Source: a virus (Duplodnaviria > Caudoviricetes). Taken from it: 64,000 nucleotides of DNA. The stretch covers positions 1-64,000 of IMG/VR virus record IMGVR_UViG_3300033066_000276, one strand, 5' to 3'. This document shows, one piece after another, positions 8,634 to 64,000 of this stretch. Positions within the stretch are counted from its first letter, which is position 1, and every line of letters begins with the position of its first letter. The notes beneath the pieces are model-generated. The model was not told the DNA's origin, did no database searches, and saw only the letters and a list, made by a program, of their open reading frames with translations. A program made the translations under genes and the position numbers.

Positions 8634-10211
8634 TTAGCTCATCTTGCTCCCGGCAAACGCACGCTCACCGTAATGCATGTTCAAGGTGATGTTCTCTGCC
8701 GACAACATGGCAAAGTGCAGCGGTTGAATAGCCAGATCAACGCCAGGGCTATTGAGTTTGAAATGAGTGATCTTGGTGGCGATCTCACCCTTGCCCTTGA
8801 GGATGCCGTCAATGTCGCTTCGATACACTGACCTACCCAAAGACCCGCGGCGAATTGCGAAGTATTCCAACAGGTTTGAGATCAACTCGGTCTTGACTGA
8901 CAACAGGTTACTGTTTGGCACGCAGTAGATATCAGCGTTTAGGTGAATGTCAACTCGCACCGGATCTTCCCGGTTCAAGATGAAGTTCAACACCGACTTC
9001 TCTTGCATGTAGTCTTCGAACCGGCCCCACTGTGTTTCATTCCACACCGAGCCATCAATCGGCAGCATGGTAATGAAGATCATGCACATAAGGGAGTTGT
9101 CGTTGGGATTGATCCGACGTTGACCACGGACTTTGCAATCGCCAACACTCTGATACTCAAGCGCGATCGCTTCCATATCATCGTGACCAACACCAACACC
9201 TCTTGAGGCAAAACCATACGGGCCAACCAGACGATAGTGTTCAGCTTCGCGCTGGTTGTCACCATTCTCAATTGCCGTAGTGGTGATGCCGCCGATGTTA
9301 GAGTTATCGTTGCACGACACAGACAGGTCGGTTAGTACCGAATTTGCTTCTGCACCAACGGTACGCACCCAGGTAACGCTGATAGTCTCATTGACCGGCG
9401 GGATAATGCCGTTGATACCGTTACCGAAAATCAACTCCGACATACCGCGTGGCGTGGTGAAGTCTGAGAAGGCTTCTACCTTGCCGTACTTCCAGATGCC
9501 GTCGGTTTTTCTATCGTAGTTTACTCCGTTGACAGTGACCACAATATCAGAGTCACTGGTGGTGAAATCGCGGCGACCAATCTCGATGCGCTGATATTGC
9601 TCACCAGTAGACGAGAAGGCTTCGGTGTTGACGATGCCCTCATACAGCATCACCGCTTCCAATTCCGTCACGCCTTCGTTGAAGACGATCACGTCACGGT
9701 TGAAGAACTTTTGGTTGCCGATGGTGAACTGAGAGTAGGCTGGAATGAACTGAATCTCGCTGTCGTCATCGTTGGTTAGCGTGACTTCTACTTCTGCAGG
9801 ACGGCGGCGAAGAATACGATTGCCCAGGGTGCGAGCCAGGGCATAGATCGAGTTCGGCAATTTCTGGGTGTCACGATGGGTTTCCTGCGCCGATCGGATC
9901 ACAGCTACTTGCAATAGGTTGACTGCCGCAGCCATGACTGAGACCAGCATGTTGCCGGTCCCCGCCATCGAAATGTCTTCCCAACTATCGTACTCACGCA
10001 GCACTTGTTGGAAGCGGGCGTAAACCTCTTCAAAGTCAGGTAGCAGATCACCCAGGGCCACGGCATCGGGAGCATTATCCTCGATAGCAGTTTGTACCCA
10101 GGCTGAAATTTGATCTATATCGAGGCCCGTTGGAAGTCGGGCTCGGTTATCCAGCAGTTGATTGTACACATATTCGCCGACAAGCGGCGAGATACGATCA
10201 GCGTAAGCCAT
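8634..10211 (-). CDS. Baseplate wedge protein (T4 gp6 / GpJ-like)
   Basis: LPDFEEVY...WED, SIYALARTLG, LIFGNGINGIIPP, WVRTVGAEAN: gp6-family motifs. Confidence 0.85.
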   Translation of the reverse strand: MAYADRISPLVGEYVYNQLLDNRARLPTGLDIDQISAWVQTAIEDNAPDAVALGDLLPDFEEVYARFQQVLREYDSWEDISMAGTGNMLVSVMAAAVNLLQVAVIRSAQETHRDTQKLPNSIYALARTLGNRILRRRPAEVEVTLTNDDDSEIQFIPAYSQFTIGNQKFFNRDVIVFNEGVTELEAVMLYEGIVNTEAFSSTGEQYQRIEIGRRDFTTSDSDIVVTVNGVNYDRKTDGIWKYGKVEAFSDFTTPRGMSELIFGNGINGIIPPVNETISVTWVRTVGAEANSVLTDLSVSCNDNSNIGGITTTAIENGDNQREAEHYRLVGPYGFASRGVGVGHDDMEAIALEYQSVGDCKVRGQRRINPNDNSLMCMIFITMLPIDGSVWNETQWGRFEDYMQEKSVLNFILNREDPVRVDIHLNADIYCVPNSNLLSVKTELISNLLEYFAIRRGSLGRSVYRSDIDGILKGKGEIATKITHFKLNSPGVDLAIQPLHFAMLSAENITLNMHYGERAFAGSKMS

Positions 10212-11223: not shown

Positions 11224-12407
11224 ACCATTTGCTCCAGCGGGTCAACAGCACGGCCAGAGCTAACCAACTTGATCTTCTCCCCATACCTACCGCCTTGTAG
11301 GTATCGTGTTTTCGCCATTACAAAATAGTAGCCACTGAGATTGAGGTTCTGATCTTGGGTCAGAGTCTCACCCACCTTGAGCTCTACTAACTGAAACAGT
11401 TTGAGCCCCGTAGCCGTCTCTACCTGTATGTCCACGCCGGTCGAATATAGACCACGCAAACGTTCGTTCTGGTAACGTGCTCTGCCCCAATTCTCATGCA
11501 TGTTTCCGCAGTCGAAAGGCAAGGTGCGACGCAGAACCGAGCCAAGCTGGTCCTTTATTTCCTTGTTCATATCGAGCACGTTGCTCTGACGAGTGGCGGT
11601 GACGTTGCTATACTCGGTTGCGGTTCCGTCAAGTTGCTCATGCACCATGACCGCGCCGTAACCACTGCGGACGTTGTTCATGCCCGATCGGCTTTGCACC
11701 ATCAGACTAACCACGTTGAACGCAGTCTTCTTACTACCTTCCTCTTGTGGGTGTAGGTAGTAGAAACAAACCTCAGGTGTCTTATCGAGACGACGGGTGA
11801 GATCGACAAACTGTAGAAGCCCGTCCTCACCCAGTCCAAGCATCATGCATGACTCTTCGTTGAACCACGAATTGTCGCTGATAAAGTGAGCAAAGCGAGC
11901 ATTGGTCATCCGATTACCGAGCCAAGACATGCTGTCGTTGGTGGTGTCGGCTTCGATCTTCAACTCACAGTCTTGTGCAATCGTTTTAATAGCCTCGGAT
12001 GCAGTGCCCGCTTTGGCCCCACCCGTAACCAGACCACGCCACCACTTCATGCTGTCATAGACGCAAGCAAGGTTGAGCACAGTTCCGCCACCACCTCCAG
12101 GCATAATGTCAGGCGCGGCGATCAAACGAAACGGAATGACTTCACCGTCTTCATCAGCCCGGCTTAGCTTAACCTCGATTGGAATGGCATCGCCGTAGCT
12201 GAAACTTCCCATCAACTCTGACGAGGGGTCACGCAGCATCAGGTCCAAAGTCGGAACGGTAGACATAGCATTGGTGCAAATGTAAAGCTCTGGCACTAGA
12301 GAGGCATTGGCAGGCATGTCTCTGCCGTTGATTTTCACCGATGCACTGAAATGGTCCTCGACGCCACCGTATAAAGCGGTTTCGTCGCGTTCGGACTTAT
12401 CAACCAT
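11220..12407 (-). CDS. Baseplate hub protein (gp27/gp44-like)
   Basis: 395 aa immediately upstream of the spike; size and synteny. Confidence 0.6.
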   Translation of the reverse strand: MVDKSERDETALYGGVEDHFSASVKINGRDMPANASLVPELYICTNAMSTVPTLDLMLRDPSSELMGSFSYGDAIPIEVKLSRADEDGEVIPFRLIAAPDIMPGGGGGTVLNLACVYDSMKWWRGLVTGGAKAGTASEAIKTIAQDCELKIEADTTNDSMSWLGNRMTNARFAHFISDNSWFNEESCMMLGLGEDGLLQFVDLTRRLDKTPEVCFYYLHPQEEGSKKTAFNVVSLMVQSRSGMNNVRSGYGAVMVHEQLDGTATEYSNVTATRQSNVLDMNKEIKDQLGSVLRRTLPFDCGNMHENWGRARYQNERLRGLYSTGVDIQVETATGLKLFQLVELKVGETLTQDQNLNLSGYYFVMAKTRYLQGGRYGEKIKLVSSGRAVDPLEQMV

Positions 12408-57090: not shown

Positions 57091-57279
57091 TTAGAACTTA
57101 GCCTTTTCGATATTCTGTTTGATCTGCCCGATAGCCTTGTCTTTGCTTATTTCATTACCATCTTCATCTACGAACTTTATCTGAGCGCTACGGCGTTCAC
57201 CTCTTAGCCTAGCCAACTCGGCTGCTTCTTCTTGGGTAATTTCCTTACCATCACCATCTATGTACTTAACCATTGTCAA
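57091..57279 (-). CDS. Small hypothetical protein with internal duplication
   Basis: YIDGDGKEITQEEA / FVDEDGNEISKDKA repeated module. Confidence 0.6.
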   Translation of the reverse strand: MTMVKYIDGDGKEITQEEAAELARLRGERRSAQIKFVDEDGNEISKDKAIGQIKQNIEKAKF

Positions 57280-58928
57280 AACCTCCGTGGCACTTGCCGT
57301 GTGTGTGCTTCTGATTGGTGCTTACGATGATTTACCACTTTTCCTCCAAACCTTGAGGGCTTAGACGAGGCCAAAGCATACATCCGTTCACGGTTTTCTT
57401 TGCTCATCTTGTAGCGTGGTTGGTTGCCATACTTGTTGCCTTCGAGGTAGGGAGAGATTGCAGTCCAACACAGCTTACGCAGACAACCTATGCTCTGTGG
57501 CATGTCATCGACGTAGATCTTGACCTTGGGTTGGCGCTTGCCTTTGGCTGGCGTGCAAGGACGACAGGCCAATTGATAGAACATCGGTCCATTCGAGGTC
57601 GGGATTACTTGATGCAGCACAGTGGGGCGCTTCATGTCCACGCCTTGCTTCATCATCGATGAGATCGCAACGACGACTAGGTGTTTGCCCTTTTCAAAGT
57701 CTCGCAGCACCTTCTTTTGATCGGAGTCAGCGTTGTAGGCCACCGCCATCTGATCGGGCCATTCTTCACCGCGTTTGCGATTGTTAATTCGAGCCTGATT
57801 GTTTATCGTCTGGATGAGTAGGTTCTGTTGCTTGCGATACTCCACTGGAATGATGACGCCACCATGCCCCTCACGCAGATCCTTGAATACGTCCTTGACG
57901 ATTCTCTTGGTGCGTCCTGGATCACTACCGATGAATGATAAGAAGTAGGTCCAGTGGTTGATCTTCTTACCCTCACCGGGGTTGACGCCGGTTTCAACGA
58001 TCTCTAATTCAGGCAGCAGAGCCGCGGTGTGTGAACGCACAGTCACCGGTCCAAGCAAAGCGTAGCCGATGAATTGACGATTGTCCTTGCGGTCGGGTGT
58101 GGCCGTAAGACCAAGCCGGTAGCGACTATCGATCTCGTTGATAAATTTGGCAAACGCCGACGCAGAACCCATGTGGGCTTCGTCAACGATCAACAGACCA
58201 AACTTGCCGGTGATCGCTTCCTTCAATCGTCCAGGGCCATACTTGCTGATGAACTTCTGGTAGTTGACCAGCACTACGTCAGCCTTGGTGTCAAGGTCTT
58301 CAACCGTACTCACCATCTTGACTACGGTTCGACCACGCCGTTTGAGATCATTCATGTTGGTGAAGTCTCGATAGGTGCGGTAGAACTGACGCAGCAGTTG
58401 CTTTTTGTGGGCCACAATCAGAGTACGGGTGCCAAGTTGCACTGAGATGAAGCAACCGAGAACAGTCTTACCCGTCCTCGGTGCCGCCTCGATGATGCCA
58501 TGCTTAACCTTGAGCCATTCGTCTGTCAGCTTGACTTGGTTAGCAGTCTTAATGTCGTCGATAGTTTGCCCGTGATAGAGCTCACGCGTGAACTTTATCT
58601 TGTTGCGGAATGGAGGATTGGCACGCTTGTCTATGGCTAGGTGAAAGTCAAAGCCGATCTTCTTGGCTGTAACTCGATCTCCTGACGGGACAGCGATGTA
58701 GTCTTCACCCTTGAAATTGCCCTTACGCCACAGCTTGATCTCACCCTGGAAGGCAGGGCATTGGTCACAAAGTTCGTTATGACGATCAGGCAAATTTTTA
58801 CATCTTCCACAAGCACTTTCGTCATAGATAGAACGTTGGTAGTGTTGTTTAACCTCCCGAAGATTAACTTGATCCCTCCGTAGGTATAACTTGTCTTTGA
58901 TTATGAACTTTGGTGAAGCCATGACCAT
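57276..58928 (-). CDS. SF2 DNA helicase (UvsW/Rad25-like)
   Basis: APRTGKT, LIVDEAH, GLTATPDRKD, QGVD. Confidence 0.92.
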   Translation of the reverse strand: MVMASPKFIIKDKLYLRRDQVNLREVKQHYQRSIYDESACGRCKNLPDRHNELCDQCPAFQGEIKLWRKGNFKGEDYIAVPSGDRVTAKKIGFDFHLAIDKRANPPFRNKIKFTRELYHGQTIDDIKTANQVKLTDEWLKVKHGIIEAAPRTGKTVLGCFISVQLGTRTLIVAHKKQLLRQFYRTYRDFTNMNDLKRRGRTVVKMVSTVEDLDTKADVVLVNYQKFISKYGPGRLKEAITGKFGLLIVDEAHMGSASAFAKFINEIDSRYRLGLTATPDRKDNRQFIGYALLGPVTVRSHTAALLPELEIVETGVNPGEGKKINHWTYFLSFIGSDPGRTKRIVKDVFKDLREGHGGVIIPVEYRKQQNLLIQTINNQARINNRKRGEEWPDQMAVAYNADSDQKKVLRDFEKGKHLVVVAISSMMKQGVDMKRPTVLHQVIPTSNGPMFYQLACRPCTPAKGKRQPKVKIYVDDMPQSIGCLRKLCWTAISPYLEGNKYGNQPRYKMSKENRERMYALASSKPSRFGGKVVNHRKHQSEAHTRQVPRRF

Positions 58929-59467
58929 GCCCTTCCAGAGATGATATTTTGTATCAAAGAAGGAGACACATTAAATCTATCACTCATCCCCTTAACACCA
59001 AATTTACTATGTCCTCGCTTGAACTTGCGTTTGATGAACAAGACATCATCTTTGCATAATTTAGCTTTTGGATGTCGAGTACCTTGTAGTGTCGTCCCGT
59101 GTTTTGAAGCATCTGCGCCATTTTCAACGTAGGTTCCATATTCTATGTTGGTCGCAACATTGTTTGTTCCCACGCCATCAAGATGACGAACTACAAGACC
59201 ATTCGGCCTTTTGCCTTTGAAAGCTCTAGCCACTAGGACATGCACATATTTGGTATATTTTACAGCTTCTCTGCACAAAGAAACAGTACGATACGGTCCA
59301 CTTCGTGCTTGTTTCAATACACGTCCAGGTACTACGTAGGACTTGAGTGGAACACCATTTCTCATAGCATTAACGGTTGTTCCCAGTGATCTTACCCTCC
59401 CCAAGTTAGAGACTTCATAATTGGGGTATCCCTTGACCTTCTTCCATATCTCTTTGGGTGCTGGCAT
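58901..59467 (-). CDS. NUMOD4-HNH homing endonuclease
   Basis: WKKVKGYPNYEVSNLGRVRS, VHVLVARAF, VRHLDGVGTNNVATNIEYGT. Confidence 0.92.
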   Translation of the reverse strand: MPAPKEIWKKVKGYPNYEVSNLGRVRSLGTTVNAMRNGVPLKSYVVPGRVLKQARSGPYRTVSLCREAVKYTKYVHVLVARAFKGKRPNGLVVRHLDGVGTNNVATNIEYGTYVENGADASKHGTTLQGTRHPKAKLCKDDVLFIKRKFKRGHSKFGVKGMSDRFNVSPSLIQNIISGRAWSWLHQSS

Positions 59468-59471
59468 TTGG

Positions 59472-60689
59472 TTAATATGTCTCTGGATCACGACCCGAAG
59501 GTGGGGAAGCTGGTGGTGGTAGCACCGCTTCTGCTGCTGCGGTTGGAACAACAGGCGGCGGTGTTGGTGGTATTGGAGTTACTGCAATCACCGCTTCCTT
59601 GACTATGGGCTCCTTGTTGACTGCCAGCACTTGCATCAAGTCGGCAATCATCTTGATCTCAGCTTCGTCAAACACTCGCGGTCGGGTAACCGAAGGATTG
59701 ACCTGAGCCTTGTTCAAGAACAGCAGTCGCGCCAAGTCACTAGCACTGTTTACCTTAAGCGCCGTGGGGAACAATTCGTCGGTAAACGGGGTTGGACGAA
59801 CGATTGGCGTGGCTCCAGCCAACACTGCTTCCATGACCTCGTACTGCATCGTATCCCGATCGTTCCACCCCAACACCCATTGGCAGCGAGATAGAAAGCT
59901 CAAGTAGTCATGTTTGTTCTTGACAACCCGGAACATCAGGTTCTGTGGCAGCTTGGTTGTATCGGGTAGATTGCGTCGGCTATTGAGCATACTGCCTGGA
60001 ACGACAGCCATAAACCTAACTAGGTCTAGGCCACGACTAAGACGATAGCTAGCGTTGTCACTGGTGACGCCAGCCAGACTATTGTACTCACGCGCAGCAT
60101 CAATCAACACTTGCAGACCGTTGTCATCGCAAACCCGTTGCGGCATGACCAAGATCTTTTCCTTCGTCGTCGCCGTGAACGCCTTGTCAACGCGACATGG
60201 ATAGCCGACTACAGCCACCTTGTCTCCACCGATCATGTGGTGCTGCATCAGTGCGTCTTTCAACGCCTGAGTAGCAACGTAGATACGATCAGCCCCTTCC
60301 ATGATGTTGTCTTCAAAGCGACCGACAACGTTGCGATTGCTCTTATCCCACATCCGTGTGGTGCTGGTGACGATACCGGCGTAAGGAATCTCAGGATTGT
60401 CCATCACAATCGACGGCACTTCTGGAGACAACAGGTCCATGAAGAACAGCATGTCGAACTGGTGATGCTTCTTTTCTTCGGCCATCTGACGAAGAACGTT
60501 GAGCCGGTTTTCGGTTTGATAGGATGGATCGTAGAAACTCTCCACGTTGGTAATCGCGGTGAAGTTGGTGCCGCCAATCATCACCACTTCCGCCATGCGC
60601 GACAGGTGGTAGACGAAGTCATCGACCAGTGTTTGTTCGGGACGAAACCAAGCTAGGGCGGGACGAACCAATCCAATAGTGTACTGCAT
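59472..60689 (-). CDS. GT-B fold glycosyltransferase-like protein
   Basis: DMLFFMD, ADRIYVAT, VVGYP, MPQRV, QYEVMEAVLAGATPIV (E-x7-E-like donor motif); Pro-rich tail. Confidence 0.75.
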   Translation of the reverse strand: MQYTIGLVRPALAWFRPEQTLVDDFVYHLSRMAEVVMIGGTNFTAITNVESFYDPSYQTENRLNVLRQMAEEKKHHQFDMLFFMDLLSPEVPSIVMDNPEIPYAGIVTSTTRMWDKSNRNVVGRFEDNIMEGADRIYVATQALKDALMQHHMIGGDKVAVVGYPCRVDKAFTATTKEKILVMPQRVCDDNGLQVLIDAAREYNSLAGVTSDNASYRLSRGLDLVRFMAVVPGSMLNSRRNLPDTTKLPQNLMFRVVKNKHDYLSFLSRCQWVLGWNDRDTMQYEVMEAVLAGATPIVRPTPFTDELFPTALKVNSASDLARLLFLNKAQVNPSVTRPRVFDEAEIKMIADLMQVLAVNKEPIVKEAVIAVTPIPPTPPPVVPTAAAEAVLPPPASPPSGRDPETY

Positions 60690-60955
60690 TACTGCGCCTC
60701 CTCTAGCATATCAGTGACAATGTGTCGGTTGTCTGGATCGGCTAGAGGTTGTTGTGAAGGTGTGTCGGTGGCAGAGTAACGCAATTCCATGCGTAGGTAG
60801 ACCAATTTGATTTCGTTTAGATCGTGCGCCATACTTGAAGCATAGTAAGCGATAGCCACCAGTATGAGCGAGCAAGCAACGATAGCGGCGTTGCGCACTC
60901 CTTCTAGGAGCAACATCATCTGCTCCCAATTCATCTTTGAAATTTTCATAGTCAA
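60689..60955 (-). CDS. Small membrane protein
   Basis: One hydrophobic helix AAIVACSLILVAIAYYA. Confidence 0.65.
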   Translation of the reverse strand: MTMKISKMNWEQMMLLLEGVRNAAIVACSLILVAIAYYASSMAHDLNEIKLVYLRMELRYSATDTPSQQPLADPDNRHIVTDMLEEAQ

Positions 60956-60958
60956 TCC

Positions 60959-61909
60959 TTACGCTAAACCGGGAAGCTCTACCCAATCAGCTTTCCATTG
61001 CATTCCGCGCTTGAGGTTGTTTATGTCCAACCCCAATCCAAGTTTGAGATTTTTGTTGTAGCACTCCTGTAATGCCTTGAGCAAGATAAAGTCTTCGTGT
61101 AGGCTGTGACCCACGATTGAATAGGTGTATTGCAGGAGCTTTCGTCGCTCATCACGATCAAACAGCGCCAGCGCTAACAATCTGTTCTCAGCCGACCGAA
61201 ACTCCCATATCTCACACGGCGTTCGCAGCACCATCTCAATTTGATTGAGCATGAAGTCAGGCAAGAAAGGGTAGTGCTTGCCTGAGATCATAACCCCGTT
61301 GCTGCTCACGCACTCGAAACCGGGAATGTCTTCCCGCAAACGTCGGCTTAAATCGGTGAGCACTAGAGCACGTAGTTCGCTTCGTCCGCTAACACTAGCA
61401 CCAAATCGATCGTAGGATTGGACTTTTACGTTCGTGTGCGCGTACCAGCAACTCTCCATGCCAATCGCTTGTAATTGGTTTCCAAACCAGATGTAGCGTG
61501 GGTTTATTACAAATTCGCCATGTCCGTCCTCAATGATGTCTAGAGGCAAGTCATGTAGAGTTCGCATGAAGTCTAGCTGCGCCGCCGCCCAAGTAGGTAT
61601 AGTCAATTCAGCCAGTACCGTCCAGATGATGCCTCGGTCGGCGGTGCTGTGTTGCACTAACGGAATAAGGAAGTCGCCGTCAGCCATCAGACTAGGTGCG
61701 CTGACGTAGGGAATGGCCGTATCTTTCGACCATTCGTGGCTACCAATCTCCACGGATACGAAAGCGTACAGCCATTCTTTTTCTAGTGGTGCTACTCGCG
61801 GCCCCATCGTTGCTGAATGGTCAGACACTGCCTGCATGAACCGTTCAACTCTCGGCCAAAAAGTATCCCAATGCTGCAACCATGTCTTGCCATCAGTAAC
61901 GTTAATCAA
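60959..61909 (-). CDS. Hypothetical protein with GNAT/ATE(Bpt)-like C-terminal region
   Basis: WEFRSAENRLLALALFD...YTYS...ILLKAL...LGLGL...MQWK resembles the ATE_C/FemAB GNAT pattern. Confidence 0.45.
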   Translation of the reverse strand: MINVTDGKTWLQHWDTFWPRVERFMQAVSDHSATMGPRVAPLEKEWLYAFVSVEIGSHEWSKDTAIPYVSAPSLMADGDFLIPLVQHSTADRGIIWTVLAELTIPTWAAAQLDFMRTLHDLPLDIIEDGHGEFVINPRYIWFGNQLQAIGMESCWYAHTNVKVQSYDRFGASVSGRSELRALVLTDLSRRLREDIPGFECVSSNGVMISGKHYPFLPDFMLNQIEMVLRTPCEIWEFRSAENRLLALALFDRDERRKLLQYTYSIVGHSLHEDFILLKALQECYNKNLKLGLGLDINNLKRGMQWKADWVELPGLA

Positions 61910-63293
61910 GACTCTTCCTCAATACTGTGCCTAGATCTATTTCGGACCCGATCAAGTTGATGATGTCTAGGCCAACGTCATCGCGGTAGGTATGTGACCA
62001 GCAAGACACTTTCCTAGCTTGATCGTATAGCTCTTGTCGTGCATCGTCTATGCTAAAATTGTTAGCAGTCAAGATAACGGCTCGATCTTGCTGTACGATG
62101 CGAACCGTTCCCTTCTTGTCGATGTAGCCCGCATCAAACAAGCGCTTTTGTACCACGATGGACAATTTGTCTAGGCCATGCACCAGGGCCAACATCTTGC
62201 CAGCCTTTTGCCCGACGAAGCTATCGTAATGCAGCAGACCAATGCTGACACTAAAGCCAGCGTCAGGATTAACTACTACATCTACATCGTCTTCTATTGG
62301 CTCGAAGCCTGAAATATGCGCTAAGAAGCGAGCGTAGTGAACCATCGTTGAGATGATATGCTCAGTCGGGTAACCAAACCGCGTTGTGAACTCTAGAAAG
62401 TGTAGCTTGTTTCCGACCATGATCGTATTGATGCCGAAGAAGCCACGATACTCGCTGTCCTTCAAGTCTTGGGTAATGCTCTCGAAGAAACTTCTTACGC
62501 GATAGGGTAGCTGATCGAACGGCACAAGCTGGCCTGCGGTTCCAGATTCACCTGAGAATACGCCGCCACGATTCTCATTGTTAACGCCCTTGTACTCACG
62601 ATTGATGAAACAGAACTGCCAGAACCTCTGACCATCGAACCAACAATCGTAGCTGAACTCTTCGCCGCCAACGATTTGTTCTTCCATGAACACACCCTTC
62701 TCCCGCCGGAAGAAGTTGAAGTAATCCTGTTCGAGGAAGTCTTGGCAGTCGGCGCGGTTCGGTGGCAGCACTGTGTCCCAGGTGCCCTTGAGCAAGAAGT
62801 TCTTGGTCGGGTGCTTCTTTAATAGCTTGCGAGCGTCCTCGATCGTTTTAACGAATACGCCTTCGTGGTTCAGAGCAAAGCCGTGGGCTTCGGCCAACAC
62901 CTTACCAAAAGCTCTGTCGAGTTCCAGCTTGTTGGTGAATGTAGTTGGTCCAATCACGAAAGGATGGATCGAACGCAAGTAGTCAGCCACCATGCCCATC
63001 TGTTTGCCGTTGTAATCGCAAACGATGAAGTCCTTACCCTTGACGAAAGCACGTAGGTCTTCCAGCACTTGCGTGTGTAGTGACTTAGACAAGCCTCGAT
63101 ACTTGCGGCCTTCGTTCGCGATCTTGTAGGTACGCGGGTACAAGAACCTCAACCCCGAACTGTCTTTCAGTTCGTAGCGATTGATCCCTGCGATAAAGGC
63201 AGTGACCTTATGCCCTTCTTTCAGAAGTTGTTCTTGTAAGCCGACAGATGCCAGCATGTGACTGACGAAGCCGATGTTATACGCTCTGTTCAC
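61902..63293 (-). CDS. PurD-like ATP-grasp ligase
   Basis: IGPT...KLELDRAFGK, VFMEEQIVGGEEFS, GESG, YRGFFGIN, LEFTTRFGYP; lacks the PurD GSGGREH N-terminus. Confidence 0.85.
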   Translation of the reverse strand: MNRAYNIGFVSHMLASVGLQEQLLKEGHKVTAFIAGINRYELKDSSGLRFLYPRTYKIANEGRKYRGLSKSLHTQVLEDLRAFVKGKDFIVCDYNGKQMGMVADYLRSIHPFVIGPTTFTNKLELDRAFGKVLAEAHGFALNHEGVFVKTIEDARKLLKKHPTKNFLLKGTWDTVLPPNRADCQDFLEQDYFNFFRREKGVFMEEQIVGGEEFSYDCWFDGQRFWQFCFINREYKGVNNENRGGVFSGESGTAGQLVPFDQLPYRVRSFFESITQDLKDSEYRGFFGINTIMVGNKLHFLEFTTRFGYPTEHIISTMVHYARFLAHISGFEPIEDDVDVVVNPDAGFSVSIGLLHYDSFVGQKAGKMLALVHGLDKLSIVVQKRLFDAGYIDKKGTVRIVQQDRAVILTANNFSIDDARQELYDQARKVSCWSHTYRDDVGLDIINLIGSEIDLGTVLRKSLD

Positions 63294-64000
63294 GGGAGTC
63301 CTTCTTTCTTGCCACTACCAATGCCGAAGTCATCATGCGTTCACCGCAACTAAAGAATTCAGATGGGACAGGGCTATATCGTTTCCGCTCAGCTTCAAAT
63401 TGTTTGGCCGTAAGACGTTTGGCCCCTAGCGAGGCTAGGTGTTCGTAGTAGTCCTGTGCGTCAATGGCTTCAATGCCTATCTCCAAACACAACTGTTCGA
63501 GGTATAGCAATGCAGCTTTACTTGATCCGCTTTCGATAGTGAACATGCTTTCGATAGTCAGATAATTGGGCAGGACCAACCCAAAAAGTCCACCGACTAG
63601 CTTCTCCTTGGGGTCCAAAACTTCAATACTATAGGCTCGTAGCTGATCGTAAAGTTCTCGATAGGCGTTTTGGGTAGGTTCGTCCAACCAGTCAATGAGA
63701 TCGTAACCATCTTCTGTGTCTTCTTCTTTGCGTTTGATCGTAGCACAGGTCTCAACCACTCGACCAAATTGCGCAGCGTCTAGGTTATTGACGTTAAGCA
63801 TAACGAACCATTTGTTCTTACGCAATTGTTGGCTCGTGGTTTTGGACATGTGAACCGACCCAGGTTCAAACACCGCTCGTGGATTAGGGATCACCCAATC
63901 CCAGGTCTTGCCTTCCTTGGACGACTTGCCGTCAATCACTGCACCAAAATCTAGTGCTGACTCGTAAAGGGTCTTACCCTTAACGGATCGAGTGCGTTTG
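63277..64000 (-). CDS. aat: Leucyl/phenylalanyl-tRNA-protein transferase-like (N-terminus outside the window)
   Basis: PNPRAV, AYRELY, SIEV...LVGGLFG, ESMF, SSKAAL, IDAQ, HLASLGA match E. coli Aat; the frame stays open to the window edge. Confidence 0.9.
   Translation of the reverse strand, partial: KRTRSVKGKTLYESALDFGAVIDGKSSKEGKTWDWVIPNPRAVFEPGSVHMSKTTSQQLRKNKWFVMLNVNNLDAAQFGRVVETCATIKRKEEDTEDGYDLIDWLDEPTQNAYRELYDQLRAYSIEVLDPKEKLVGGLFGLVLPNYLTIESMFTIESGSSKAALLYLEQLCLEIGIEAIDAQDYYEHLASLGAKRLTAKQFEAERKRYSPVPSEFFSCGERMMTSALVVARKKDSREQSV

Follow-up and report, generated by a model that had tools for sequence, protein, structure and literature searches.

The last kilobases of a 64,000-nucleotide stretch of viral DNA (hereafter, the window) carry a run of enzyme-like genes on the minus strand, which is the subject of this analysis. 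The window is the first 64 kb of the IMG/VR virus record IMGVR_UViG_3300033066_000276, which has a length of 80,096 bp and a CheckV completeness of 36%. An original prediction, made from the letters of the window, had recognized a tight run of four enzyme-like genes together with a small membrane gene at 59472-64000. This run is real: the minus-strand open reading frames (ORFs) at 59472-60689, 60689-60955, 60959-61909, 61902-63293, and 63277-64000+ abut or overlap by 1-17 nt at the gene junctions, and all reading frames are intact and translationally coupled. However, the cassette is larger than was described, as it reaches beyond the window to position 66948 of the record (G000:C1). Its genes form one operon, for which a promoter and terminator scan gave no signal above chance level. 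The region upstream of 64000, which the original prediction had singled out for inspection, contributes four further genes, and the operon as a whole reads as follows:

59472..60689, minus strand: 405-amino-acid (aa) GT-B-like putative glycosyltransferase, with marginal family matches and a Pro-rich C-terminal tail
60689..60949, minus strand: small single-pass membrane protein, 86 aa, with one hydrophobic helix (AAIVACSLILVAIAYYA)
60959..61909, minus strand: 316-aa putative Fem/Acetyltransf_6-type double-GNAT transferase, with fold leads and a presumed aminoacyl-tRNA donor
61902..63293, minus strand: PurD-like ATP-grasp ligase, 463 aa, with full-length PurD homology, non-orthologous
63277..64020, minus strand: Aat-like aminoacyl-tRNA-dependent transferase, 247 aa; the window edge at 64000 omits the first 7 codons
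G000:C1 64020-64937, minus strand: predicted class I S-adenosylmethionine (SAM) methyltransferase, 305 aa, from the fold of an ESM Atlas model
G000:C1 64934-66115, minus strand: probable second GT-B enzyme (GT4-like), 393 aa, with an EX7E motif and weak PF00534 and phrog_2170 matches
G000:C1 66116-66622, minus strand: 168-aa protein with zero family matches
G000:C1 66619-66948, minus strand: DUF4031 protein (E 3e-18; phrog_4887), the leading gene of the operon

Judged by its core genes, the source phage is a deep-branching member of a broad jumbo-phage clade, since its major capsid, portal, TerL, DnaB, helicase, and PolA proteins share 27-39% identity with their counterparts in three jumbo phages. 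These are the IMG/VR record G001 (209.6 kb), Xanthomonas phage PhiXhv-16 (229 kb), and Pseudomonas putida phage vB_PpuM-Peetri (200 kb; hereafter, Peetri). Its PolA is also ~30% identical to that of Erwinia phage Yoloswag, Pseudomonas phage PaBG, and Vibrio phage GR7B. A megablast search of the cassette region against cultured phages returned zero matches at the DNA level.

By sequence, the product of 63277-64020 is an Aat-family enzyme. It matches PF03588 with an E-value of 5e-32 and 111 bits (gathering cut-off 22.7) over model positions 18-170/171 and aligns to residues 56-206 of E. coli Aat (2Z3K). The IDxQ motif reported in the original prediction is kept, and the motif pairs of the phage and E. 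coli proteins are IESMF/GESMF, IDAQ/IDCQ, and HLASLGA/HTASLGA; we take the catalytic Asp-x-Gln of the E. coli enzyme to be D186/Q188. However, the score of 79.5 bits against the NCBIfam equivalog TIGR00667 lies under the cut-off of 143.55, and E. coli residues 1-55 (Pfam positions 1-17) have no counterpart in the phage protein, whose 40 N-terminal residues are unrelated; the protein is therefore assigned to the Aat family but not considered an orthologue. The Aat of Xanthomonas phage PhiXhv-16 is 39% identical, with E replacing Q of the catalytic motif. Since the gene sits in a biosynthetic operon, its gene context suggests that the acceptor is probably other than a protein N-terminus.

The ligase encoded at 61902-63293 is matched by about 120 PurD homologues at 24-27% identity across 94% of its length, and a profile of the four-member ligase family matches the PurD structures 2YW2, 3LP8, and 2YRW with E-values of 5e-20 to 8e-12 over positions 81-450. 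This alignment to the structures covers the protein from about residue 81 on; the N-terminus (NIGFVSHMLASVG) was read instead from the consensus of the four-member family alignment, in which GGREH is absent. The original prediction had noted this missing PurD start and RFGYP in place of RFGDP, and both are seen in the ligase. The motif changes go further, with RFGYPTEH for RFGDPE, EFT for EFN, FSGESGT for NTGGMG, and a shorter B-loop, while the ATP-grasp hinge and C-domain are conserved. A bona fide PurD acting as a purine auxiliary gene was considered and rejected, because the signature motifs are lost and the protein scores 47.9 bits against TIGR00877, far under the equivalog cut-off of 288; the Pfam GARS_A and GARS_C matches all fall under the gathering score. 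Because 98 positions are invariant among family members that are 30-88% identical, the alignment indicates that the family is under constraint, with substrates that would differ from those of PurD.

The 316-aa protein (60959-61909) has zero Pfam matches (PF13480, PF02388, and PF09924 included) and zero matches in PDB sequence and profile searches. An exhaustive phmmer search found three remote homologues among 1.84 billion representatives; the remote homologues P0125 and P0127 carry C-terminal PF13480 matches at E 0.008 and 0.002, below the cut-off. In the ESM Atlas, a feature comparison gave values of 0.92-0.94 to Acetyltransf_6, FemAB, LPG_synthase_C, and Mig-14 clusters, and a structure search gave TM scores of 0.43-0.53 to the nearest clusters, which include Acetyltransf_6 and ATE. 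The AlphaFold2 (AF2) model, for which the input alignment had 4 rows, is poor (pLDDT 39) and displays two beta-beta-beta-alpha units; among the top Foldseek matches listed for this model there are GNAT folds only, at E 2e-3 to 2e-2, such as L-PGS 4V36, DUF2156 5VRV, and FemX 1NE9/7Z6A. A profile comparison with hhalign related the family to a 264-aa gene of PhiXhv-16 located directly upstream of a Gat-QueC gene (probability 98.9%, E 1e-17), and no similarity to the 545-aa Acetyltransf_6-bearing protein of the same phage was detected by hhalign. Additionally, the C-terminus of the family contains the motif GLDxxxYKxxWKP with an invariant Lys300, in a position like that of the catalytic Lys305 of FemX (PMC12945691). 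Thus, the GNAT half of the earlier GNAT/ATE-like call stands as a weak lead from the Atlas and from Foldseek matches with E-values of 2e-3 or weaker, and, at the level of such leads, the protein is probably a Fem/Acetyltransf_6-type double GNAT, which describes it better than ATE does. Its gene likely starts at TTG 61909, since conservation with P0125 extends over the first ~25 residues and relatives have forms of 316 aa; public gene calls are shortened to 292 aa and start at residue 25.

The 405-aa protein (59472-60689) matches diacylglycerol glucosyltransferase families at E 0.08-0.4, and its homologue P0124 matches Glyco_trans_4_4 at E 0.024. Its motif DTMQYEVMEAVLAGATPIV resembles the sugar-nucleotide helix of GT-B enzymes (DX7E-like), and BLASTP aligns the protein with an annotated glycosyltransferase of PhiXhv-16 over ~300 aa at E 5e-5 to 1e-4. 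The AF2 model, based on a 3-row alignment, has a pLDDT of 31 and is unusable for a structure search. The glycosyltransferase (GT) call of the original prediction is hence kept as a plausible GT-B assignment resting on marginal sequence matches. The C-terminus (59472-59590) is a ~40-residue Pro/Ala/Thr-rich tail that varies in close relatives, overlaps the start of a neighboring HNH ORF, and may be a linker or a disordered tail. The 393-aa protein, which begins with KVLIITNQ...GIGVY and has FETFGYHLLEMAAAGVRTIV (EX7E) near the C-terminus, matches PF00534 at E 0.008 and the glycosyltransferase family phrog_2170 at E 0.005, both weakly; by sequence, it is probably a GT4-like GT-B enzyme. Between the Aat-like gene and this second GT lies the 305-aa gene, whose product is predicted to have a class I SAM-methyltransferase fold: the Atlas model (pTM 0.75) matches Methyltransf_11/25 clusters, among them an amino-sugar N-methyltransferase cluster, with TM scores of 0.62-0.66 by query and 0.72-0.79 by target, and the family shows a weak PF13847 match and LE..SG.GS/GDA/D.I.A motifs in its alignment. 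PDB sequence and profile searches with the 405-, 305-, and 393-aa proteins returned nothing.

The genes are conserved together, on which the original prediction had made its case depend, both on a contig of a close relative and in Xanthomonas jumbo phages. On the relative contig (31,737 bp), the ligase, the 405-aa GT, and the 316-aa protein are 88%, 87%, and 91% identical, respectively; further relative contigs of 17.3 kb and 5.9 kb exist. In PhiXhv-16, four cassette families recur around a Gat-QueC gene, in the order Aat, a 545-aa Acetyltransf_6+GNAT protein, two unknowns, the 264-aa gene of the 316-aa family, Gat-QueC, a PIG-L deacetylase, and a GT of the 405-aa family; a homologue of the 305-aa methyltransferase lies ~5 kb upstream of aat. 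Two annotations in this cluster deserve correction or comment. The gene at L003:13971-15494, annotated as GlmS (L-glutamine-D-fructose-6-phosphate aminotransferase), is actually Gat-QueC (GATase + QueC; PF06508 E 2e-49), and that at L003:15491-16099, annotated as an N-acetylglucosamine (GlcNAc)-malate deacetylase, is a PIG-L/LmbE-family protein. The grouping of Gat-QueC, PIG-L, and GT recalls the GT-deacetylase-ligase logic of mycothiol and bacillithiol synthesis. The Aat/Fem/GT/PIG-L/Gat-QueC cluster is present in the cultured Xanthomonas phages PhiXhv-12/15/16, Ep026, and Ep032.

The ligase family leads to the same class of genes. In G001, a ligase 30% identical to that of the source phage lies within a FolE/DpdA-like/QueC cluster (L004), in a run of FolE, DUF7487, a DpdA-like tRNA-guanine transglycosylase (TGT), QueC, an unknown, a QueC-like gene, an unknown, the ligase, two unknowns, and a lysine-2,3-aminomutase-like radical SAM gene. 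The DpdA-like transglycosylase carries DSGGFQL and CTCPxC motifs, and QueD is found a few kb farther on. The modules of Peetri and Vibrio phage GR7B consist of two QueC genes, a ~695-aa protein (694/697 aa), and an aminomutase; the 694-aa protein of Peetri was found to contain a GARS_A ATP-grasp domain, and the GR7B counterpart is 38% identical to it. Two paralogues of the 305-aa methyltransferase are inserted in the QueC/ATP-grasp module of Peetri. Counted over the related jumbo phages, five cassette families have relatives that lie no more than ~10 kb from a QueC, Gat-QueC, or DpdA-like gene. The physical linkage of cassette homologues to QueC/DpdA genes is seen in PhiXhv-16, G001, and Peetri, and in GR7B for the ATP-grasp ligase only, and DpdA-like genes are found in G001, PhiXhv-16, and Peetri. 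Pattern scans of IMG/VR with the ligase, Aat, 316-aa, and methyltransferase families returned one locus only, L004 of G001, and scans of metagenomes gave nothing or just contigs of 2-3 kb.

The module shared by three of these lineages (L059:5040-12091 in GR7B; L014:117-12099 in Peetri; L004:3175-14581 in G001) merits a description of its own. It combines two QueC-family genes, one of them divergent, with a PurD-like ATP-grasp protein of ~470-700 aa and an aminomutase-like radical SAM protein, and, by analogy with roseomycin, this suggests a lysyl or beta-lysyl amide of 7-carboxy-7-deazaguanine. Its cultured carriers are P. putida vB_PpuM phages and Vibrio phages GR7B and GR11A, and a literature search found no description of it. 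In G001, three paralogues of ~300-340 aa (L004:7183-8139, 8992-10002, and 11424-12335) alternate with the QueC and PurD-like genes, and a homologue is present in Peetri (L014:2569-3588); this family has zero Pfam matches, and no relation could be detected to either the 316-aa or the 305-aa family. Just downstream of the deazaguanine cluster of G001, the gene at L004:14639-16054 contains an intein with a homing-endonuclease domain (PF14890 E 3e-14).

We regard it as about an even call that the operon is a tailoring module for a hypermodified nucleobase of phage DNA, which would probably be derived from 7-deazaguanine. The proposal starts from the order of the genes, the homology of two of them to Aat and PurD, the methyltransferase fold, the co-conservation of the families, and their embedding in the QueC/DpdA-like clusters of related phages; the substrates throughout, the order of the steps, DNA as the target, and the production of deazaguanine by the source phage are what we infer. 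The amide-forming and glycosylating multi-enzyme pathway envisaged by the original prediction, with DNA hypermodification among its options, is thus supported by co-conservation and by relatives in 7-deazaguanine clusters, while the 7-deazaguanine link itself, the upstream methyltransferase, and the second GT had escaped notice.

What the enzyme families concerned are known to do suggests how they might share the work. ATP-grasp ligases form an acyl phosphate that is then coupled to an amine, with phosphoribosylamine, an amino sugar, serving as the nucleophile in the case of PurD. From aminoacyl-tRNA, Aat and Fem-type GNATs pass the aminoacyl group on to a free amine. Sugars are donated to GT-B enzymes by nucleotide sugars, and PIG-L enzymes convert GlcNAc to glucosamine. 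In the proposed pathway, the base could be made elsewhere in the genome and enter DNA via a DpdA-type transglycosylase. A glycosyltransferase could attach a sugar, possibly an amino sugar, to the base or to its side chain. The PurD-like ATP-grasp enzyme would then form the first amide through an acyl phosphate coupled to an amine, either by joining an amino acid to an amine of the base or sugar or by joining the carboxyl of 7-carboxy-7-deazaguanine to an amino acid. QueF is absent from all five genomes checked; therefore, a phage-made preQ1 amine as the acceptor is without support in those five. The free amino group thus created might then be extended with more amino acids, which the Aat-like and Fem-like enzymes would take from aminoacyl-tRNA, and the methyltransferase and second GT would complete the adduct. 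Tailoring may take place either on the free base ahead of DpdA insertion or later on DNA. We put forward more tentatively, and with confidence well short of even, that the DNA of this clade contains a glycosyl-peptidyl base, whose first amino acid would be installed by the ligase and extended from aminoacyl-tRNA by the Aat/Fem-type enzymes.

Individual steps of this scheme have precedents. DpdN, an enzyme of the PurN superfamily, is the proposed formylator of dPreQ1 in phage DNA (PMC10516641). RoyL, a QueC homologue, ligates Lys, Orn, or D-Ala-D-Ala to 7-carboxy-7-deazaguanine, and RoyL-type clusters also contain ATP-grasp enzymes and methyltransferases (bioRxiv 10.64898/2026.04.15.718813). 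Huimycin is obtained from preQ0 by methyltransferase and GlcNAc transferase tailoring (bioRxiv 10.64898/2026.04.15.718813; PMC7439116). Furthermore, the Fem-like Orf11 aminoacylates an amino sugar, and the Fem-like PacB does so with a peptidyl nucleoside (PMC12945691).

Several points weigh against a role in DNA tailoring. We know of no aminoacyl-tRNA-dependent transferase that acts on DNA or a nucleobase. DNA is likewise not mentioned in a review of aminoacyl-tRNA-utilizing enzymes (PMC12945691). The small membrane protein in the operon is easier to reconcile with a target in the envelope than with DNA. AF2 gave no reliable fold for the 316-aa and 405-aa proteins (pLDDT 39 and 31), and in the ligase both the Asn of the EFN magnesium site and the Asp of GDPE are gone, so its activity is not assured. 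In GR7B, the methyltransferase paralogues are ~90 kb from the QueC module. No homologues of TGT/DpdA, QueC, QueD, or QueF occur in the 80,096 bp of the source phage; as 64% of the genome is missing at 36% completeness, this is absence of evidence and not decisive. Finally, the related phages all belong to one broad clade, so that the co-occurrence with QueC at the genome level is perhaps partly due to shared ancestry, and only gene-by-gene adjacency was weighed.

Among the alternatives, it is unlikely that the product is a free metabolite, in which a nucleobase or an amino sugar would be glycosylated and aminoacylated in the manner of huimycin, roseomycin, and the peptidyl nucleosides, and which might serve as a decoy or inhibit the host or competitors. 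Such a role would agree with the tailoring of free 7-deazapurines by GT, Methyltransf_11-type, ATP-grasp, and QueC-like amide synthetase enzymes in actinomycetes (bioRxiv 10.64898/2026.04.15.718813) and with the acceptors of Fem-like aminoacyl-tRNA transferases, which are known only as small molecules, lipids, and peptidoglycan (PMC12945691); it would also fit the cassette proteins, in none of which domain-family scans detected a DNA-binding or base-flipping domain. However, the related clusters include a DpdA-like transglycosylase, which in phages is tied to DNA insertion (PMC6884629, PMC10516641), and it is by their lack of insertion enzymes that metabolite clusters are separated from DNA systems (bioRxiv 10.64898/2026.04.15.718813). 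The cassette is, moreover, devoid of a transporter or regulator. Most of the evidence is common to this alternative and the DNA-tailoring module, and the two would be hard to tell apart if the free base were tailored ahead of its insertion by DpdA.

Modification of proteins, by which Aat, perhaps with an ATE/Bpt-like partner, would place destabilizing residues on host proteins for degradation by ClpS/ClpAP or virion proteins would be aminoacylated and glycosylated, is improbable. N-terminal Leu/Phe addition is the only established function of Aat, the donor-side and catalytic motifs are kept in the phage enzyme, ATE-family clusters appear among the Atlas structure neighbors of the 316-aa protein (TM 0.48-0.50), and phage glycosyltransferases that decorate virions exist. 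Against this stand the missing counterpart of E. coli residues 1-55, the score below the equivalog cut-off, and the E for Q exchange in the catalytic motif of the Xanthomonas phage Aat. The genes conserved next to it encode a PurD-like ligase, a methyltransferase, GTs, PIG-L, and Gat-QueC, not proteases, adaptors, or structural proteins, and the cassette is located in the replication and not the virion module. ClpS is absent from the source fragment and from the complete PhiXhv-16 genome, which counts for little, as the host could supply it. The N-degron alternative raised by the original prediction is accordingly disfavored, with no positive support: the Aat is below the equivalog cut-off, and its partners are not proteolysis genes. 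Remodelling of the envelope, in which amino acids and sugars would be attached to a surface polysaccharide, a lipid, or a precursor of peptidoglycan, for instance for superinfection exclusion, is a comparably long shot. It would account for the peptidoglycan- and lipid-acting Fem, MprF, and Mig-14-type GNATs as the nearest Atlas/Foldseek neighbors, for the weak GT matches to MurG-like and diacylglycerol glucosyltransferases, and for the single-pass membrane protein within the operon, and ATP-grasp ligases such as Ddl do serve peptidoglycan synthesis. Yet the membrane gene is unseen in related clusters, the cassette enzymes have no predicted membrane anchor, and the homologues amid Gat-QueC, QueC, and DpdA-like genes would be left unexplained. 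Least credible, and in our estimate very improbable, is that unrelated accessory genes, decaying in part, have come together by chance. Several members are indeed without a significant family match, canonical metal-site residues are lost in the ligase, and the nearby homing endonucleases suggest a zone of mosaic genes; however, the reading frames are intact and translationally coupled throughout, one relative contig retains three of the genes at 87-91% identity, four families are together again in PhiXhv-16, and 98 positions are invariant in a PurD-like family whose members are 30-88% identical.

DNA hypermodifications of phages shape defence by restriction, CRISPR, and glycosylases and are a source of enzymes for nucleic-acid chemistry. 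If the DNA of this clade does carry a glycosyl-peptidyl base, it would represent the first tRNA-dependent, ribosome-independent addition of a peptide to a DNA nucleobase, a use of charged tRNA by viruses that has gone unrecognized, and a task for Aat outside the N-degron pathway. Even if the target turned out to lie in proteins or in the envelope, a new acceptor for an Aat encoded by a phage would be a novelty in biology.

The DNA around the cassette is part of the conserved replication module, in which two flanking genes on the downstream side may be distinguished:

57276..58928, minus strand: replication-module helicase with ResIII and DEAD matches, which marks the conserved backbone around the cassette
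58901..59551, minus strand: NUMOD4/HNH homing endonuclease (PF07463 E 7e-13, PF13392 E 3e-10, phrog_59), which abuts the downstream end of the cassette

Orthologues of the helicase in G001, PhiXhv-16, and Peetri are 27-37% identical. In PhiXhv-16, the helicase directly adjoins the 190-aa, clamp, and PolA genes, with no cassette in between, whereas here the cassette separates them; it is therefore an accessory insertion in the jumbo-phage replication module. A second NUMOD4/HNH_3 paralogue, 36% identical to the copy at 58901-59551, is located at G000:C1 69217-69837 (L002:9121-9741), ~2.3 kb past the upstream end of the cassette, and a third HNH-like gene is found at G000:C1 70908-71423. The homing endonucleases may have aided the move of the module into the replication region.

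As for the smaller genes of the operon, the real start of the ORF at 60689-60955 is probably ATG 60949, which is preceded by AAGGA; its stop codon and the start codon that follows overlap in TAATG, and an overlapping Arg-rich alternative frame was judged to be junk. The encoded membrane protein has zero matches in Pfam, PHROGs, and NCBIfam, and a homologue was not seen in the related clusters. A PHROGs search over the cassette proteins (59472-66115) gave nothing beyond one weak glycosyltransferase match, and a PIG-L-like deacetylase was not recognized in the source phage.

Compared with known systems, the cassette enzymes retain recognizable architectures in new surroundings. The phage Aat shares ESMF, the SK(A/T)AL helix, IDxQ, and HxASLGA with E. 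coli Aat (2DPT, 2Z3K), but its gene stands in a biosynthetic operon, and the N-terminal 55 residues are missing. Downstream of about residue 80, the ligase has the same three-part architecture as PurD (TIGR00877; 2YW2, 2YRW, 2QK4), and by analogy it would be expected to form an amide from a carboxylate and an amine; unlike PurD, it has no purine-pathway context. The nearest neighbors of the 316-aa protein are the FemXAB/Acetyltransf_6/LPG-synthase-C/ATE double GNATs, with which it has in common a length of ~300 aa and, in its poor AF2 model, two beta-beta-beta-alpha units, but it is itself without a significant sequence match to that group.

At the level of pathways, the actinomycete clusters for huimycin and roseomycin A use similar tailoring classes, namely GT-B, Methyltransf_11-type, and ATP-grasp enzymes, and a divergent second QueC is found in the phage relatives. 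The likeness drawn here is one of enzyme class, and the actinomycete 7-deazapurine clusters are bacterial, make free metabolites, and contain neither insertion enzymes nor Aat-type transferases. Phage 7-deazaguanine systems are already known, and, in the papers searched, the combination of tailoring enzymes in the cassette appears undescribed: literature searches found no link of Aat or an aminomutase to jumbo-phage deazaguanine clusters and no deazaguanine tailoring set with GTs, a PurD-derived ligase, and Aat/Fem-type transferases. The known phage systems (FolE/QueD/QueE/QueC with DpdA, and DpdM, DpdN, and DpdL for tailoring; PMC6884629, PMC10516641) are sited beside replication genes, as is the cassette, although the core pathway genes are not on the available fragment of the source phage. 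PurN-like DpdN is a precedent for the recruitment of a purine-pathway enzyme to tailoring, as proposed here for the PurD-like ligase. In contrast to the cassette, the known set of deazaguanine tailoring enzymes includes no ATP-grasp ligase, no glycosyltransferase, and no aminoacyl-tRNA transferase, and the known deazaguanine products in DNA are small, bearing cyano, amido, formamidino, aminomethyl, methyl, formyl, or carboxy groups, whereas the adduct proposed here, if it exists, would be much bulkier and have both sugar and peptide character.

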